Positions 3,258-45,764 of a DNA stretch of 45,764 nt are shown here, piece by piece. The first letter of the stretch is position 1; every line of letters begins with the position of its first letter. The position numbers and the translations under genes were made by a program. This DNA comes from a virus: the IMG/VR virus record IMGVR_UViG_3300006052_000013; one strand, 5' to 3'. The notes under the pieces were generated by a model. That model had not been told where the DNA came from. It saw only the letters and a program-made list of their open reading frames with translations, and searched no databases.

Positions 3258-5146
3258 TTTGCCTCCTTCCAATTCGCCCCGGTCTTTGCTTCCCAGAGAA
3301 TTGGAATTCTGAAATTGAAGTCCTGGGTGTTCAGCAACTCGTCCATATTTTTCAGATTCACTGGATCAGGGTCCTGATCACCATCAAACTCATCGTGAAC
3401 TACGAAACGCTCCGTATAATTTAACACCTTTCGCTCGCGGTGAACGATAAAAATTTTCTTTTTCATTACGTCGGCCGCGGTACCCTGGAGGATACGGTTG
3501 AGTGCCGAGTGCGGCTTATAGGCAATCTCCTCCATCAATCTGATCTTGGGGTCCTGACTGGATGGCTTCGTGAATTTCGCCCGCCGTCCCATAAAGGTCT
3601 TTACCCATCCTCGGTTCTCCGCCAGTTTTGTGGCCTGCCGAAGTAGCCTTCCCGCCTCGGGAAACTCGCTTTCGTAAGCATCGACGAACTTATCCGAGAT
3701 GCTTTGCAAAATGCCCAGTTGCAGGGCGATCTTCACCCGTCCGGCCCCGTACACCTTGGAAAAATTGATGGTCTTGGCCGGTTGCCGGTCGAAGTCCGGA
3801 ATCACGAGACGAATCAGGTCCCGAACCATATCATGAAAATCGACCCGCGGATTATCCCCGTATGCCTTATTTAGCTTTGGGGAATTGGCGTAGTGGGCAA
3901 ATAAGCGAAATTCAATCTGTGCCGCGTCGGCGCAGAGCCAAACTTTTCCGGGGGAGGGAATAAATAGTTCCCGGATTAACCAGTCGGGTCCCACGTCTCG
4001 AATCTGATCCTTAGTCCGCATGATCTGTTGGATATTGGCGCCGGGGATACCCTCGCCCGGACTGGCGGAAGAAAAGCGGCCACTGACCGTGCCCTTGTCA
4101 TCATTATTCGCCCGGAGTTGGTGCAGACTATACCGAAGAATATTTTTGTCATCCAGGGCCTTGAGATACTTCTTCAAATACTTAGACAATAATGAGGCGA
4201 TACGACGTGCCTTGACCGCAATTTGAATCTCGGGATTCGGAAGTTTGGCCAGATAGTCTCCCTCAAAACTATCCTGGCCCTTGTCGGTCCGGGGCGGGTC
4301 TATTCCCAAATAACGAAACATTCTTGACATGTCGGTGGAAGCATCGGGATTGACCCGGAATCCGACCCGTCGGTACAGTTCCATAATCAATTTATGGTAG
4401 GCGGCCTCGGCCTCCCGGACCCAACGCTCCAACTTAGGCCGGTCGATGAGCGCGCCGTTCCGTTCCATTGTGACCACGGCAAAAATGATGGAATCTTCCA
4501 AGTCAAGTACTTTATCCAGGTCATCTGACTTGATTGAATTTTTCAGTTTGCTTTCGATTCCATACCGCATTGCCATATCGAGTTGATAGACCCGTTGGGC
4601 ATCTATCTCGGCGTATGGCCCGACCATCGCGGCCGGCATATCGGCAATTTGGGACTTGTCATTTTTCCCGAGTTCCTGATCCTTTCCCACGATGCCCAGG
4701 ACGTCATTACACAAAATCTCTAAATTGAACTTGCGCCGGTATTCATCCAATAATGCCGCCTGGTAAGATACGTCATGGCACCGGTTACCGAGGGCCTCCA
4801 GATCAATACCCCAGTTATGAGTGACGTGGGTATCATACTTGGCATTTAACCAGGATATATCCTTGTCTCGGATTTCGCGTTCAAACCAGCGTTTTACCAG
4901 GCGTTCATCGAGGTTCCCTCCCCCGGCGTGACCAAAGGGAAGATACCATTTGTTTCCATCCTCCGTGTAAAAACTGTAACCCACGGGGCGGGCCGTGAAG
5001 GGATTCTTACTGGTGGCCTCGGAATCGGCCCACAACCACTTATACTTGCTCAGGTCGGGGAGAGACGGGGCGGTCCATTTCACGCCGTCCGATCTTTCCG
5101 CAAACCGAGCAAACATGTTTCCCGGCCTTACCGTGGGTAACTTCAT
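3254..5146 (-). CDS. family A (Pol I-type) DNA polymerase with 3'-5' exonuclease domain
   Basis: ADSEAT (Exo I), DAAQIEFRLFAHYA (motif A), PAKTINFSKVYGAG (motif B), VVHDEF (motif C). Start at MKLPTV forms an ATGA overlap with the upstream stop. Confidence 0.9.
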   Translation of the reverse strand: MKLPTVRPGNMFARFAERSDGVKWTAPSLPDLSKYKWLWADSEATSKNPFTARPVGYSFYTEDGNKWYLPFGHAGGGNLDERLVKRWFEREIRDKDISWLNAKYDTHVTHNWGIDLEALGNRCHDVSYQAALLDEYRRKFNLEILCNDVLGIVGKDQELGKNDKSQIADMPAAMVGPYAEIDAQRVYQLDMAMRYGIESKLKNSIKSDDLDKVLDLEDSIIFAVVTMERNGALIDRPKLERWVREAEAAYHKLIMELYRRVGFRVNPDASTDMSRMFRYLGIDPPRTDKGQDSFEGDYLAKLPNPEIQIAVKARRIASLLSKYLKKYLKALDDKNILRYSLHQLRANNDDKGTVSGRFSSASPGEGIPGANIQQIMRTKDQIRDVGPDWLIRELFIPSPGKVWLCADAAQIEFRLFAHYANSPKLNKAYGDNPRVDFHDMVRDLIRLVIPDFDRQPAKTINFSKVYGAGRVKIALQLGILQSISDKFVDAYESEFPEAGRLLRQATKLAENRGWVKTFMGRRAKFTKPSSQDPKIRLMEEIAYKPHSALNRILQGTAADVMKKKIFIVHRERKVLNYTERFVVHDEFDGDQDPDPVNLKNMDELLNTQDFNFRIPILWEAKTGANWKEAK

Positions 5147-14366: not shown

Positions 14367-14563
14367 GACATCACCCGGTCACTAAGAATTTGTATTGATC
14401 CCGTTCCAATTTTCCACTTTTGGTCCAATCCCCACTCTTGAAGTATAGTTTTGGCCAAGGTTTCATTTTCTGCCATGATGTGGGCGCGAACGGCGAACTT
14501 GAAATTGATCTTAGGATCAATGAACTCGTTCGTCACTATGAACACTTTTTTCTCTGATTGCAT
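14363..14563 (-). CDS. hypothetical protein
   Basis: Start reset to the ATG after GGAGGAAAGCA. Confidence 0.5.
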   Translation of the reverse strand: MQSEKKVFIVTNEFIDPKINFKFAVRAHIMAENETLAKTILQEWGLDQKWKIGTGSIQILSDRVMS

Positions 14564-15218
14564 TGCTTTCCTCCATGGATTTTGCTGCAAAATTTACGGC
14601 CGCCTCGGCCGGGGAACGACCACAACGGGAACAGGTACAACCTTCGGTGTGATTTCCCTCGGTTTGGGTCCAGGTATCCGGCCGGCCGTCTTTGTGTTCC
14701 CGGACCCAGGCCTCAAGATAAATACAAACATTGTGATGCCATTCTTTAACGTCGTCACTGTAACAGTTCAGTTCAAATGAGGCCCTGGCCAATTTCATAT
14801 ATTCGTGTATCTCGCCGGTCAAGTTTACCAGAAAAAGATAAAGCCAACGAGGCGTGATACAAAACGAATATTTGTCGGCGACACAGAGTGTCGAGGTATT
14901 TTGTAAATGTTGTTTGGCCAGGAATCGAGAGTGATAGAGACAGAAATTATACCATGGTTTATAGTGCGGGGGTTTTTCCGGGTCCCACCCATCGAATAAC
15001 GCGCTCACGATCTGGGCACCGAGGTAGGGGTGTTGCTCGCCCTCCGGCCCGTCCATATTAGGTTTTCCAATGTAACCAAGATCATGAAAAAAGAAACAGG
15101 CCCATAACCGTGGGTCCCACGGAAACCCATAGAGTTTATACCAGGCCCGGGCCACAAACCAGGGGTGAATGAAAAAACAGTGGGCACCATAGAGAATGCT
15201 TTTGGTTCCAATTTTCAT
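14517..15218 (-). CDS. HD-domain phosphohydrolase
   Basis: FFFHDLGYIGK; the ATG overlaps the SNF2 stop (TAATG). Confidence 0.65.
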   Translation of the reverse strand: MKIGTKSILYGAHCFFIHPWFVARAWYKLYGFPWDPRLWACFFFHDLGYIGKPNMDGPEGEQHPYLGAQIVSALFDGWDPEKPPHYKPWYNFCLYHSRFLAKQHLQNTSTLCVADKYSFCITPRWLYLFLVNLTGEIHEYMKLARASFELNCYSDDVKEWHHNVCIYLEAWVREHKDGRPDTWTQTEGNHTEGCTCSRCGRSPAEAAVNFAAKSMEESNAIREKSVHSDERVH

Positions 15219-27010: not shown

Positions 27011-27097
27011 TTTGCTGTATGACACGGGAACAACCCCGTGTCTGTTCGGAGAGGAACAACAGCAAAATCATAGTACACCGATTACGGTCTGGTGTAC
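27011..27097 (-). ncRNA. candidate structured small RNA or 3' trailer with an anti-SD loop
   Basis: No ORF with an SD. Hairpin GUACACC..GGUGUAC, then a 3-way junction UUGCUGU/ACAGCAA enclosing UGUUC-CUCUCC-GAACA and GACACGGG..CCCGUGUC. Bounded by JH copy 1 and the terminator. Confidence 0.3.
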
Positions 27098-32153: not shown

Positions 32154-32156
32154 TCA

Positions 32157-32220
32157 TATCTCTAAATCTTGGAATGGCATTACATGAATATCTCTAAATC
32201 TTGGAATGGCATTACATGAA
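32157..32220. repeat. 32-bp tandem duplication (2 copies) at a gene 3' end / JH junction
   Basis: tatctctaaatcttggaatggcattacatgaa occurs twice and shifts the stop codon of 32180..32419. Confidence 0.85.
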
Positions 32221-32419
32221 TACCTCCCTGGAAGTGACCCATGAACACGATGGAATGATGAAACGGGTACTTAACCTTTAACAAATTTCTGTACCGTTCA
32301 ATTTTTGTTCCGATGGTCATTCCACTTTCAGAGGCGTCGTCCGGTCCTACTTCGACGATTGCCAGATTGTTCATGTAATCTTCATTGGAATGGTGGTTGA
32401 TAACGTAGATTAGTTTCAT
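32180..32419 (-). CDS. small hypothetical protein (79 aa)
   Basis: Start reset to MKLIYVINHH after AGGAGAGGAAC; C-terminus altered by the 32-bp duplication. Confidence 0.5.
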   Translation of the reverse strand: MKLIYVINHHSNEDYMNNLAIVEVGPDDASESGMTIGTKIERYRNLLKVKYPFHHSIVFMGHFQGGIHVMPFQDLEIFM

Positions 32420-37428: not shown

Positions 37429-38991
37429 TTAGTCGTTCTGTTTTTCTTTGTACTCCATAGACCGCACGATGACCCCGAACAACAGGTCGCCCAGGCGGTG
37501 CAACATACCCGGAATCACGATCGCGTTGGGGTTGTGGGAGGTTCCCAGAAGGGCGCCAAACCCAAAGTAACCTTTGTGCAACCGGAGTTCCGGGTCGGCC
37601 AGTCCGGGAGACTTTTGAATTTCTCCGTCGTAGTCGTATTGCATTTCATTGTGCCGGAAACTGCAACCGAAGTTCACCAGATCGTCGGGGCGATTCTCAT
37701 AACCGGTCAGGTTATAAAACTCATCCACTTTGGTTTCGGTCTGGGAACGACCCCGCCGGATCACAAAGTCTTTTATGATCCGGTCCCACCCGGTGACATC
37801 TGACACGATGCGCCCCGTCCGCAGTGCCCGGTAGTAATCGGCCCGGTTCTGGGGAAGATCGCCCTCGTAATCTACCAGGTTCGAGGCAGAAAGATCACGA
37901 AATACCCGGTACTTCGTGTTTTTTTGGATGATGTAATCATCCGGATTAAATACGGAGTCCTTGGGATAGTGGGTCAATACCGAATAATCGGTATCAATTC
38001 CTCGATCCTGGGCATCGTGAAGTTGCCGGAGCATCTCGGCGGTAGAGTTTCCCAGGCCAATAAAGAGAAATTTCTTTCCCTTAATTTGCGGGTAAGTGAG
38101 GCGCTTTTGCCAACGGTTACCGGCGTGGGTGACCTCCGCAGATGTCACCATACGGTGGCGATCCGAGAGGTTTTTCGGTTTTCCCAGTCCCAGGCAGTTG
38201 ATGACGATGGGGTACTCCTTAAAACTTTGACCACGGTCATAAACCCCGTGGGCAAGATTGTTCGGAGTAACCGTGGTGACGTCGTTGGTGATAACGTTTA
38301 ATGAATTGGCGTTCTGGATATTTTGCAGAAAATCCCGTACCTCCGATCCTTCGCCGGGCGCCGGTTCCAGGGCATACTCGCCCAGGACCAATCTACGAGG
38401 ATTGTTTCGACTCCCGCCTTTGATATCTTCCCGTGACCAGATTCCAAATGGTTTGCCCTTTTCATAAAGAGTTACATTTTTAAATCCGGTGCGACTCAGG
38501 CCATATCGTACAATTTGGCCCGCCGCCCCACCACCGATGATGGCAATGGGTGTGTTCCCAATGTCCAAATTGATCACGTTATAAAACGTGGACAAACGTC
38601 CGGCGATACCACTCCCAAAAAAATTATTGGAAGTATTTACCGGAGAGACGGCCAAGGCGCGATCAATTACTTGATTTTGCTCGGGCGTTCCCCGGTAAGT
38701 AACACAGTCGGCGGGTTTCGAGAACAACGAAACTTCACCCAAATAATCCAACACCGGAAATTTTTGGTATATTTCATCTCCGGAAACATTACGCAAGACG
38801 TAACTTCCCAGAAACTTTCCCAGCATTTTCCGACGGCCCATTTCAACAATGGCCTGGTTACTCCAACCTTTATCGCGCGTCATACGTTTTAACACGGATA
38901 TCGGATTGGATAACATTATTGGACTAACGACGTTGTACGACTTCATCGCTTCAACTGCCAAGAACGACTTCAACATTTCTTGGTGATTCAT
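37429..38991 (-). CDS. two-dinucleotide-binding-domain flavoprotein (FAD/NAD(P)-dependent oxidoreductase or monooxygenase-like)
   Basis: IAIIGGGAAGQIVRYGL (GxGxxG) and FLFIGLGNSTAEMLRQL (a second Rossmann motif); start reset to MNHQEML after ACAGGAGAAGAACAA. Confidence 0.7.
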   Translation of the reverse strand: MNHQEMLKSFLAVEAMKSYNVVSPIMLSNPISVLKRMTRDKGWSNQAIVEMGRRKMLGKFLGSYVLRNVSGDEIYQKFPVLDYLGEVSLFSKPADCVTYRGTPEQNQVIDRALAVSPVNTSNNFFGSGIAGRLSTFYNVINLDIGNTPIAIIGGGAAGQIVRYGLSRTGFKNVTLYEKGKPFGIWSREDIKGGSRNNPRRLVLGEYALEPAPGEGSEVRDFLQNIQNANSLNVITNDVTTVTPNNLAHGVYDRGQSFKEYPIVINCLGLGKPKNLSDRHRMVTSAEVTHAGNRWQKRLTYPQIKGKKFLFIGLGNSTAEMLRQLHDAQDRGIDTDYSVLTHYPKDSVFNPDDYIIQKNTKYRVFRDLSASNLVDYEGDLPQNRADYYRALRTGRIVSDVTGWDRIIKDFVIRRGRSQTETKVDEFYNLTGYENRPDDLVNFGCSFRHNEMQYDYDGEIQKSPGLADPELRLHKGYFGFGALLGTSHNPNAIVIPGMLHRLGDLLFGVIVRSMEYKEKQND

Positions 38992-39025
38992 TTGTTCTTC
39001 TCCTGTATAAGCCCGATTCATCGGA

Positions 39026-43035: not shown

Positions 43036-43443
43036 TCAGGCAATCTTTTTCATATCCGTGAAGTAAACCTCACGGATACCGTCATGGTCATCCGCATCCC
43101 AGAACTCTTTATCAAGTTCTACGATGAACATTCCCCCACGTTCCGCCTCGACGATCTTGCCGACCTGCCGTGGATTATATTCATCCGCGGACAGTTCGAC
43201 TCGATCACCCTCTTTAAAGCCGCCGTAACTTGGCACGGTGGCCTCAACCGGGGGTGTCTTGGGTTTGGGAACGTACTCTTTCCTCAGCTTCATCGCCGAC
43301 CGAATCCGAACGCCGCGGTTGGTCCGAAGATTGGTTCCATTCCAACCTCCGTAGGAGGAAACGGAATCCAATCGGACGGGAACCAGTTTGTTACTGACTT
43401 TGACGACGTACGTCTTACCAACTTCTACCTCATTCTTTTTCAT
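43036..43443 (-). CDS. hypothetical protein (135 aa)
   Basis: ATG after CAAGGAGAGGAACA. Confidence 0.6.
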   Translation of the reverse strand: MKKNEVEVGKTYVVKVSNKLVPVRLDSVSSYGGWNGTNLRTNRGVRIRSAMKLRKEYVPKPKTPPVEATVPSYGGFKEGDRVELSADEYNPRQVGKIVEAERGGMFIVELDKEFWDADDHDGIREVYFTDMKKIA

Positions 43444-43703: not shown

Positions 43704-43976
43704 TTAATCAACAACCCAACCATCTTTCACGATGTCCTCGAAACTGCGATAGGCCAACTGTTCCGCGTCCCTTAGATTTTTCAGGGCCTCCGTGTCAAAC
43801 ACATTGACTATGAAAAGAGTGAAGGGAAATTCTTTTGACTCCGCCAGGACGGCATAATCAGGCTTCTGTCCATTACGCCGGACCAGGGGCAGAAAAGGCC
43901 AACGTGGCCAGGAGTTCGGGTCTTTCAGGAAGTTCATCGTGATTTCTTCGAGACTAACCTTAACCAGTTTTTTCAT
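43704..43976 (-). CDS. hypothetical protein (90 aa), first ORF of the array
   Basis: Start reset to MKKLVKVS after CAAGGAGAGGAACACA. Confidence 0.55.
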   Translation of the reverse strand: MKKLVKVSLEEITMNFLKDPNSWPRWPFLPLVRRNGQKPDYAVLAESKEFPFTLFIVNVFDTEALKNLRDAEQLAYRSFEDIVKDGWVVD

Positions 43977-45265
43977 TGTGTTCCTCTCCTTGTTCCCGGT
44001 GCTCTTATCCAGGCTTGGGACTGGCGTGGCTTGGTATGGCAATCTGAGAGGTTTTATTCTCAGATTGGATTTTCCGCCCCACGGCGCATTAACGACTGTA
44101 TTCAGGAGGAGAGTCCCTACTAACAGTCGCCCCTCTGCATGACCTTACGGTCATACACAGCGATTACCATCGGGAGGAGAGTCCCTTGGTAATCTATGGA
44201 CTATACAATTGTCTCAGTAATCTTGGAAACCATCCCAACTCCGATATAAATTGTGCACCGGAGTTATTTAGGCATTCTGTTCCAAAAGGTTTCATCTTTC
44301 TAGTTGATCCGGGGCGCATAACGCCGCTCAACTGTTTGGGAATGTACCGTCCGCGATGGGCACTCTGACATTCTTACTTGGGTCGTAGATCGTTGACAAC
44401 CGTCCGTCTTTCGGTTCGCTTTTCGTGGGGTTTAGCAACCAGTCTAACTGGGATCACCACTTTAAGAACCAGGTTTATCGAAACACCTGATTCTCGCGAC
44501 TCCTACTCGCAAGGCCCTCTGTGTCAATAGATTCTCCCGATTGCCGGGAGTTTGAACCTAGATTTTGCCACTACTCTTTATAACCTACATGCTCAGGACT
44601 TGGGACCTGATTCGGTCGTAGTGGACTTCACGCCTGGCTTTATCGCATTTCGCTTATTCCGGCGTGACCAGATAAAATCGGTACGTCCTATCCGGCGGTC
44701 AGAATACTAATCGCGCCATCCGGGACTTCCCGAAGACCGTGAGGTACGACCTGTGAACTCCACTGTGGGGTTTGGCCCACGCCTTAAATCTTCTAAAGCC
44801 AACTGGGATGTCAACATATTCTTACCTCCCGCCCGCCGTTGGAACCGTTCCAAACTCTTACGAGTTTTCAATGGACTCTCCGTCCCCGGTAGGGTCTGAG
44901 GTTGGCCCGAGTGTCTCTAATCTCGGATTTTTCTGAAGATTGGCAGATATTACAGTAATCGCCCTTCGTGCTTCTGGATTTCTCTTACGATCTCTGATGA
45001 CGGGAGTTTCCTCGGTCCCAGGGTTTAGATTCTCTCGAATCTCACGGGTGTCCGTCAAGTAGAGGTTTAATCGGCCGTTCATTCTGAGAAGGTACTCAGT
45101 TTTTCCCTATTCCCTTTTCCCAGACCGTCCCGTGACAGGCGCTTTGCTGGGTACTCGGACTCAGTTCCGAACTACCGAATCTAGATTTCAATGATCCACA
45201 AGGTCACCAGGTAGGGCTCCTATTGGTCTTCCCTGGTGCCTTAACCATAATCCGTTAGATTGGAC
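43977..45265 (-). ncRNA. candidate large structured non-coding RNA or long leader (~1.3 kb, ORF-free)
   Basis: No SD-preceded ORF in any frame. Dense hairpins, several with GNRA loops, and G-U pairs that work only in the minus sense. Starts just downstream of the promoter at 45272-45300. Confidence 0.35.
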
Positions 45266-45271
45266 ATATCC

Positions 45272-45300
45272 ATTATAACCTAGTTATGCCTTGATGAAAA
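45272..45300 (-). promoter_or_regulatory. sigma70-type promoter candidate (TTTTCA-17-TATAAT)
   Basis: Minus sense TTTTCA TCAAGGCATAACTAGGT TATAAT in an AT-rich region; a perfect -10 hexamer. Confidence 0.55.
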
Positions 45301-45609: not shown

Positions 45610-45764
45610 GATTTCTTCTCCAACATCATCCGCGCCTCTTCCACCGCGCGGTGCAAATCATCCCAATCATCCTCCCCAAATATCATCGTGGCGTTGGCCG
45701 AGAGGTCGACCTCCCGTGGCCCCGGCGCGGTTGCCCCGGCGCGGTTGCCCCGGCGCGGTTGCCC
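45606..45764 (-). CDS. partial ORF running off the right edge (start uncertain)
   Basis: The frame is open from the window edge to a TGA overlapping the next ATG. Its 5' part coincides with a 14-bp tandem repeat, so the true start may be the internal MIFGEDDW. Confidence 0.25.
   Translation of the reverse strand, partial: GQPRRGNRAGATAPGPREVDLSANATMIFGEDDWDDLHRAVEEARMMLEKKS
45721..45764. repeat. 14-bp tandem repeat (3+ copies) truncated by the window edge
   Basis: cccggcgcggttgc occurs 3 times and is followed by cc. Confidence 0.8.

Follow-up and report, generated by a model that had tools for sequence, protein, structure and literature searches.

Shine-Dalgarno-complementary hexaloops and a candidate type-P5 twister ribozyme at the head of an early phage operon

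What function is carried by two neighbouring hairpins that have unrelated stems and display one and the same apical sequence, upstream of the first gene of a long phage operon? The question was raised by an earlier note on the IMG/VR virus record IMGVR_UViG_3300006052_000013, a stretch of 45,764 nucleotides (nt) called the window throughout, and was addressed by computational analysis of the two hairpins (the twin hairpins) and of the operon that follows them. The hairpin nearer to the operon is very probably stem P1 of a candidate type-P5 twister ribozyme, and both hairpins present a CUCUCC hexaloop complementary to the Shine-Dalgarno (SD) sequence characteristic of the operon. As the best explanation, adopted tentatively, these two hexaloops and a third one at the far end of the operon are taken to be SD-complementary loops carried on a leader fragment cut off by the ribozyme and on a 3' trailer.

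The twin hairpins and the candidate ribozyme

The 14-mer GGAGGAGAGTCCCT (plus-strand reading) was found in exactly two copies, 44105-44118 and 44173-44186; every other match in the window had at least two mismatches, so there is no third copy of the full 14-mer. Identity between the two copies reaches 16 of 17 nt when the flank is included (TC[A/G]GGAGGAGAGTCCCT). Only two exact direct repeats of at least 14 nt spaced 20-100 nt apart are present in the window, the twin being one of them, and any such repeat appeared in 13 of 500 dinucleotide shuffles; the other nearby repeat of this length, at 32156-32223 (plus strand), is an exact direct duplication, about 35 nt long and offset by 32 nt. Each copy of the 14-mer forms the tip of a different hairpin, as the earlier note had described, and both stems measure 8 bp. 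Hairpin 1 (44092-44130, minus strand) consists of the stem GCGACUGU/ACAGUCGU (44130-44123 with 44099-44092) and a 23-nt apical insert, and hairpin 2 (44162-44194, minus strand) of the stem GAUUACCA/UGGUAAUC (44194-44187 with 44169-44162); the stems are unrelated, and it is the shared apical sequence that is kept.

Long open reading frames (ORFs) and composition skews were essentially all on the minus strand, on which all genes lie, and we infer that the region is transcribed in this direction. The minus-strand RNA had rightly been taken as the relevant one: with all genes on that strand, its segment 44210-44080 is predicted to fold into three consecutive hairpins (-52.6 kcal/mol, z = -4.77), compared with a weaker predicted fold of the plus strand (z = -2.17). 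The shared sequence had been described as a 14-nt loop, of which the apical identity stands and the open loop does not: in the model the 14 nt form a 4-bp mini-helix, GGGA/UCC(C/U), closed by the hexaloop CUCUCC, for which an unpaired probability of about 0.9-1.0 was predicted. In copy 1 (AGGGACUCUCCUCC on the minus strand, 44105-44118) the distal helix is GGGA/UCCU and the hexaloop lies at 44113-44108; in copy 2 (44173-44186, minus strand) the helix is GGGA/UCCC and the hexaloop lies at 44181-44176. The sole difference between the copies (U versus C) faces a G, and the pair is kept in both. The repeated unit is accordingly a 17-nt module, A-GGGA-CUCUCC-UCCY-GA, set on the tips of two unrelated helices. 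Neither hairpin is followed by a U tract, and a terminator scan of the minus strand was empty here, so intrinsic terminators were rejected.

The element at 44009-44139 (minus strand), which heads the operon, was recognized as a complete type-P5 twister candidate by a match to the Rfam family RF02684 (Twister-P5) and by a strict descriptor demanding P1, P2, a U/N-AA site, the pseudoknots T1 and T2, P4 and L4. In twisters, P1, P2 and P4 are essential and P3 and P5 optional, two pseudoknots are formed, L1 and L4 are conserved and the scissile step is the U-A next to P1 (PMC5408937). Along the RNA of the head element the parts follow each other as P2 3' strand, GAGGG, P1 hairpin, U^AA, P2 5' strand, T2, P3 insert and P4/L4, the aligned core reads UGCA-GAGGG-[P1]-U^AA-UGC-GC ... 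CCA-GUCCCAAGCC-UGG, and every conserved position of the RF02684 consensus is matched. The permissive scan scored the match at 30.0 bits; the E value was 3e-4 in the search of 751 nt and 0.019 for the whole window against all 4227 Rfam families. This score lies below the curated gathering threshold of 37.6, which counts against the assignment; it is sub-threshold because of the 23-nt apical insert in P1, which holds the twin module, and a 57-nt P3 insert. The strict descriptor returned the head element as its single site in the window and no match in 300 shuffled windows, at a sensitivity of four out of the eight Rfam-positive twisters of a distantly related phage contig (L086).

In the head element P1 is the 8-bp stem of hairpin 1 and adjoins the cleavage site, and P2 is formed by G44138-A44136 with U44088-C44086, with a possible extra U-G pair, in type-P5 order. 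The L1 strand GAGGG (44131-44135, minus strand) contains the conserved guanine G44135 and contributes G44133-G44131 to T1, while P4 with its loop L4 (44009-44024, minus strand) contributes CCC to T1 and G44014-C44013 to T2. Both pseudoknots were assessed as complementarity, not as structure: G44133-44131 with C44019-C44017 for T1 (GGG:CCC) and G44085-C44084 with G44014-C44013 for T2 (GC:GC). T1 reads GGA:UCC in the eight twisters of L086, a compensatory difference. The exact sequence GTCCCAAGYC occurs twice in the window only, in L4 of the head element and in an orphan L4-like hairpin of the leader. From the UAA position in the RF02684 alignment, U44091^A44090 (minus strand) is the predicted scissile bond. 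The P3 insert (44026-44082, minus strand; outer stem GUGG/CCAC) is a copy of a module from the 5' untranslated regions (UTRs) of the same operon and contains the 10-mer UGCCAUACCA, found five times in the window (0.09 expected), four times in UTR modules and once in P3.

Judged at the level of sequence, the head element fits a type-P5 twister by all criteria except the curated score, and the fit points to self-cleavage. Compared with the described type (RF02684; Roth et al. 2014; PMC5408937), it has the same circular permutation, element order, stems P1, P2 and P4, pseudoknots T1 and T2 and U^A site; it differs in that the tip of P1 is the insert bearing the twin module and not a short loop, that P3 is built from a UTR module recurring in the same operon, that a hairpin upstream overlaps the 3' strand of P2, and that its score is under the gathering cut-off. 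The first hairpin of the earlier note, given there as GACTGT/ACAGTC, thus exists as a stem, and its identity as P1 had been missed. Hairpin 2 has no GAGGG/UAA flanks, which places it outside the twister core, and its copy of the module lies 68 nt upstream of the copy in P1. Between the twin hairpins a GNRA-type middle hairpin, UGUAUGACC-GUAA-GGUCAUGCA (44136-44157, minus strand), is predicted from fold and sequence; its last 3-4 nt are the 3' strand of P2, so that either the base of this hairpin or P2 can form, but not both.

Loop complementarity and competing explanations

The hexaloop and its next nucleotide, CUCUCCU, are the exact complement of AGGAGAG, which bears out the SD complementarity claimed earlier. 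Among 59 curated ribosome-binding sites of the phage, AGGAGA was present in 36, GGAGAG in 23 and AGGAGAG, the second most common 7-mer of these sites, in 21. The twin hairpins lie 115-220 nt upstream of gene 1 of the operon (43976-43704, minus strand; 90 amino acids (aa), an ORFan; ATG at 43976), at the downstream end of about 1.3 kb devoid of a convincing gene. The SD sequence of gene 1, GGAGAGG (43983-43989, minus strand), at which AGGAGAG is present too, would form a 7-bp duplex with the loop at -12.1 kcal/mol, compared with -10.9 kcal/mol for the generic 16S tail at the same site. The similar loop reported at 27048-27057, at the other end of the array of elements in this operon, was also recovered: the hairpin UUGUUC-CUCUCC-GAACAG (27042-27059, minus strand), inside a three-way module (27065-27012), bears the same hexaloop, and the intrinsic terminator of the operon (27009-26977) follows 33 nt downstream. 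CTCTCC occurs seven times on the minus strand and, as the complement of SD sequences, 35 times on the plus strand; three of the seven minus-strand copies are hexaloops of hairpins, at both ends of the operon. The third hairpin shares with the twins the hexaloop only and not the distal stem, so what the two ends of the transcription unit have in common is the CUCUCC loop. The surrounding segment 26977-27128 (minus strand) is highly structured (z = -6.8) and comprises the last element of the array, a hairpin weakly aligned as P4 by Rfam, the three-way module and the terminator.

The hexaloop is probably the functional part of the twin hairpins; that it works by pairing with SD sequences is put forward more guardedly. 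Under the explanation preferred here, the long early operon would be transcribed on the minus strand from upstream early promoters and the head twister would cut U44091^A44090. Hairpin 2, the middle hairpin and P1 would be released, with everything else upstream, on a 5' fragment ending in a 2',3'-cyclic phosphate, and the gene-1 mRNA would begin with a 5'-OH. Because of the position of the cut, both twin loops would be left on a non-coding 5' fragment, and the third loop would be on a non-coding 3' trailer. The loops would then pair with GGAGAG-type SD sequences and so damp or time translation, a proposal made because CUCUCC(U) exactly complements the characteristic SD sequence (A)GGAGAG of the operon. 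Action could be on gene 1 in cis before cleavage, or in trans on GGAGAG-type phage mRNAs from the released end fragments; the latter is more plausible, since a repressor acting in cis would be lost immediately to a fast ribozyme.

As candidate promoters, sigma-70-like sites were found seven times (1.8 expected), six of them on the minus strand, in the gene-poor stretch of about 1.3 kb and directed into the operon. The best, TTTTCA-17-TATAAT (45272-45300, minus strand), lies about 1.17 kb upstream of the cleavage site, and weaker promoter-like sites at 45058-45029, 44399-44370 and 44229-44200 (minus strand) also point into the operon; all are consensus matches only.

Several observations weigh against this explanation. 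Loops rich in C and U trivially complement purine-rich SD sequences, which makes a 7-bp match weak evidence of function, and in minimum free energy folds, both local and over 1.3 kb, the hexaloops were not paired with the gene-1 SD sequence. A fast twister would strip a cis anti-SD sequence almost at once, so repression of gene 1 in cis is hard to rationalize, and the stoichiometry of three loops to dozens of SD sequences casts doubt on a sponge acting in trans, except with highly stable fragments. The distal stem, identical in the twins (GGGA/UCCY with A...GA flanks), is not needed for SD pairing and would be better explained by a protein site or by recent duplication. Look-ups by protein, DNA pattern or contig yielded no relative that differs in sequence, and there is therefore no phylogenetic support for the twin loops or for the head copy of the ribozyme. 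A search for hairpins displaying GGAGAG as kissing partners of the loops gave nothing systematic. In favour of the explanation, one analogous case was seen in contig L083, from an unrelated phage with an array of hammerheads: about 150 nt upstream of its first gene, the leader hairpin GCAG-UCCUCCUCC-UUGC (4152-4170, plus strand) has a loop, UCCUCCUU, that is an 8-nt complement of the SD flavour of that contig, AAGGAGGA. Nothing comparable was found in L086.

A serious rival, unlikely as it is held to be, takes the twin modules and the third hairpin as sites for a phage or host RNA-binding protein, which might be a translational repressor, a cofactor of ribozyme folding or an antitermination factor of the boxB/nut kind; a pair of identical sites at a spacing of 68 nt could accommodate a dimer, and the site in P1 would couple binding to ribozyme folding. 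It accounts well for the identity of the full 17-nt module, 4-bp distal stem and A...GA flanks included, and for the grafting of this module on unrelated helices, as is known for boxB or coat-protein operators, and the competition of the middle hairpin with P2 would allow regulation of the ribozyme. The third copy, ahead of the terminator, recalls nutR before tR1, and as with lambda nut/boxB sites, identical small loops recur in early transcripts, after early promoters and before a terminator. The positions of the three hairpins are compatible with such a system, but loop sequence and size differ, neither boxA nor an N-like protein was found, and twister cleavage would cut the tether of the hairpins to the elongating RNA polymerase. 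The third hairpin, moreover, lacks the distal stem that the rival would explain, and no recognizable RNase, RNA-binding or N-like protein was seen when 66 proteins were compared with Pfam and eight with PHROGs.

It is rather improbable that the twin motif instead pairs in cis with GGACGGAGAGUCC (44873-44885, minus strand), about 700 nt upstream in the leader RNA, a pairing that would fold the leader into one large domain or occlude the SD sequence and UUG start of a putative 54-aa micro-ORF (44871-44707, minus strand; SD GGAGAG), both of which the site overlaps. The sequence GGAGAGTCC is exact at three sites in the window only, the two loops and, in complementary sense, this partner; 12 of the 14 motif nt would pair at -21.5 kcal/mol, better than anywhere else on the minus strand, and the 5' half of hairpin 2 (44188-44176) is complementary to 44881-44869 at 12 of 13 positions. 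On the other side, the same duplex energy was reached in 55 of 1000 shuffled leaders, both loops would have to share one partner, the intervening leader shows no unusual degree of structure (z about 0 to -1), and the micro-ORF was not called by the gene callers of the assemblies and has no homologues or family hits. The same holds for a nested putative 36-aa micro-ORF (AUG at 44817, preceded by GGGAGGU); the gene callers gave instead a 74-aa ORF at 44858-45082, in one contig only. The idea that the leader as a whole is a large structured non-coding RNA was rejected, there being no Rfam hits and only 44300-44000 (the twister block) and 44800-44600 folding better than shuffled sequences, and none of these motifs was found in the 10 kb further upstream beyond the leader. 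At the end of the window a tandem 14-nt repeat, GTTGCCCCGGCGCG, with at least three copies (45716-45764, plus strand) runs past the last nucleotide; its copy number apparently varies between contigs.

Improbable to a slightly greater degree is a neutral by-product, in which a segment was copied between hairpin tips by local duplication or gene conversion. RNA modules have evidently been shuffled within this operon, as the UTR module in P3 illustrates, and purifying selection on the motif cannot be shown with all recovered contigs identical. Against this, both insertions are exactly at helix tips and keep a foldable mini-hairpin, the single U versus C difference retains the pair with G, and an independent third hairpin shows CUCUCC even though the hexamer is rare on this strand. 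Finally, a role at the DNA level, as two operators for a DNA-binding regulator, is very unlikely: the 17-bp direct repeat with its 68-bp spacing and a promoter-like TTTCCA-18-TATAGT (the site at 44229-44200) ending 6 bp upstream of hairpin 2 would suit it, but each copy is the tip of a different 8-bp inverted repeat, which an operator does not need, one of these inverted repeats is P1 of an RNA motif, and the third copy is only a 6-nt loop in another hairpin.

The array of twister-like half elements

Loops at both ends of an array had been noted earlier; the loops were found as stated, whereas the nature of the array as some 35 twister-derived elements had not been noticed. The operon (27.1-44.1 kb, minus strand) is a long run of small early genes headed by the twister, and between 27095 and 43706 (minus strand) 34-35 intergenic elements, about one per gap between these genes, were identified by simple scanning and then with a covariance model based on 12 copies; the head twister stands exactly at the head of the series. 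The elements can be written as (stop codon) xx-GAGGG-[6-8 bp hairpin, 2-6 nt loop]-UAA-xx-(SD)-(start). Each is a half element, in that a 2-bp P2, the GAGGG/UAA internal loop and a P1 hairpin make up the cleavage-site half of a twister. Over 34 copies GAGGG and UAA are almost invariant, whereas the P1 stems have diverged with compensatory changes and P2 switches between AC...GU and CA...UG; P1 loops measure 2-6 nt only, compared with the 23-nt insert in P1 of the head element. In P1 and P2 together, 98% of cells were paired and compensatory changes were seen at nine of nine pairs, with a covariation score of 0.85 (0.18 in shuffles, at most 0.15 in slid controls) from an alignment that was fitted to the model.

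No L4/P4 loop of the GUYCCAAG type and no cis T1 partner for GGG was found after any of the 34-35 half elements, and the T2 dinucleotide lacks conservation, reading AC or GC in no more than about 18 of 34 copies. The half elements were not classed as twisters because they lack P4/L4, a defining feature, and fail the strict descriptor; L4 has been described as key to the active twister structure (PMC5408937). Terminators were rejected in the absence of a U tract, and so were spacers of sigma-70 promoters, the spacer being 16-20 nt long and always a covarying hairpin, and TS-like 'lantern' minimal ribozymes, whose internal-loop sequences differ. A described counterpart, that is, an array of half elements under apparent selection, was not found in the literature.

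Some half elements are followed by the 5'-UTR module already mentioned (39595-39500, 30696-30602, 28770-28677, 32156-32058, 34897-34798, 43037-42943 and 32517-32420, minus strand). Within a closing stem of the form UGGCA/UGCCA or GUACAGC/GCUGUAC lie two hairpins, one purine-rich (GAGGGGAAACCUC or GGGAGGAAAUCCC) and one variable, and the module ends in AUACC-AGGAGAGGAA-N-AUG.

An orphan L4-like hairpin, CAG-GUCCCAAGUC-CUG, was located in the leader (44594-44609, minus strand), enclosed by a CCACUAC/GUAGUGG stem. Neither L1 nor cleavage-site nucleotides were found near it and a second full twister at this place was rejected for want of the L1 nucleotides; the hairpin may be what is left of a second twister, or a piece that acts in trans. 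In the latter case the half elements, which retain the substrate together with the catalytic guanine, might form a split twister, cleaved once an L4 hairpin is supplied in trans, with the orphan (44609-44594) or L4 of the head element after self-cutting as possible donors, and the CUCUCC loops of the released leader would be guides that dock on the GGAGAG SD sequence a few nt past each cleavage site. This is a long shot. The almost invariant GAGGG/UAA next to diverged P1 stems, the missing cis partner for GGG and the restriction of L4-type hairpins, two in all, to the leader and head region of the window speak for it; the unconserved T2 dinucleotide, a cis T2 partner owned by the orphan L4, a distance of at least 400 nt between the anti-SD loops and the orphan L4, and the weak basis that five tertiary base pairs offer for a bimolecular complex speak against it.

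Relatives, comparable systems and significance

All contigs carrying this phage (among them L073-L079, L127 and L133-L135, from JGI, ENA and Logan samples) were 100% identical over leader and array. In INPHARED no DNA match was obtained, and the DNA polymerase was less than 30% identical to that of any phage there. In IMG/VR the 14-mer gave 72 single hits at chance level and no twin, and relatives of the two flanking small proteins were not found; patterns of the array elements gave chance hits only, and no arrays, in IMG/VR, JGI metagenomes and GTDB genomes. Six IMG/VR contigs of about 2 kb with GAGGG-hairpin-UAAGUAC were set aside as coincidental, since they encode an RNA-dependent RNA polymerase and the match lies inside the ORF. 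More distant links exist. L086 (1701-7629, plus strand) has eight above-threshold type-P5 twisters, one per early intergenic gap, and L082 (150-1065) and L083 (4516-6154; both plus strand) have 4-5 type-II hammerheads at the same kind of intergenic position. These three contigs and the present phage each encode a small protein sharing the N-terminal domain of about 63 aa of a 135-aa protein at 43039-43443.

The window encodes phage-like proteins including PolA, UvrD, an AEP primase, SNF2, a sigma factor, an RNA ligase, a C5 methylase and ThyX. The ligase, of the T4 Rnl1 type (22670-23818, minus strand), is accompanied by two calcineurin-like phosphoesterases (Metallophos) elsewhere in the window; this set could heal and seal 2',3'-cyclic-phosphate and 5'-OH ends such as ribozymes make, and could equally be the usual counter-measure to tRNA nucleases. 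The shoulder domain of the major vault protein (E = 1.5e-26), along with a weak match to the vault repeat, was recognized in an 851-aa protein (18149-20704, minus strand), which is unusual for a phage. Embedded in the early array is a 530-aa FAD/NAD(P)-binding monooxygenase-like protein (37429-39021, minus strand), the closest homologues of which (about 40-44% identical) come mostly from Patescibacteria/Parcubacteria assemblies and may hint at the host or at the origin of the gene. A match to the glmS ribozyme (14546-14724, minus strand; 24.6 bits with a gathering threshold of 37, E = 0.076) lies inside an ORF and is probably due to chance.

Three known arrangements invite comparison with the locus. 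The ribozyme-punctuated operons of L086 (twisters) and of L082 and L083 (hammerheads) use the same stop-to-SD gap and the same coding strand and are likewise preceded by a long leader, but here the first element alone is complete and the other 34-35 are without L4. In RsaE/RoxS and RNAIII of Firmicutes, hairpins with C-rich loops pair with SD sequences; there, as here, several hairpins of one RNA present the same C/U-rich loop complementary to GGAG-type sites. The loops described here, in contrast, are placed on the leader and trailer of an operon and not on a separate small RNA (sRNA) gene with its terminator, one of them sits within a ribozyme stem, and putative self-cleavage would generate the 3' end. 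In engineered expression platforms, reportedly from the Hartig laboratory, the SD sequence is masked until a hammerhead or twister ribozyme cleaves, so that there too a self-cleaving ribozyme stands directly upstream of the SD sequence and the SD complement is on the fragment cut away. Those devices are said to pair the SD sequence inside the ribozyme stem, whereas here it begins (at 43989) 20 nt past the end of the ribozyme (44009), and the predicted folds contain no stable pairing between loop and SD sequence. The resemblances to sRNAs and to engineered devices are offered as comparisons and not as claims of membership.

Ribozyme processing of polycistronic mRNAs in bacteria and phages has been proposed, and the biological role of most bacterial and phage twisters is still unknown (PMC6765202). 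The locus described here links three parts: a putative leader-trimming twister, an SD-complementary hexaloop in its P1 that is duplicated upstream and occurs again at the 3' end of the operon, and about 35 half elements. If the loops pair with SD sequences, the locus would be a natural instance of a ribozyme linked to the control of translation, which so far has been met mainly in synthetic biology. Should cleavage of the half elements occur, be it in trans, with the help of a protein or through a new minimal fold, the idea of what a minimal or modular twister is would change; and should the split-twister proposal prove true, the phage would possess a natural twister that acts in trans with multiple turnover and processes the entire operon.

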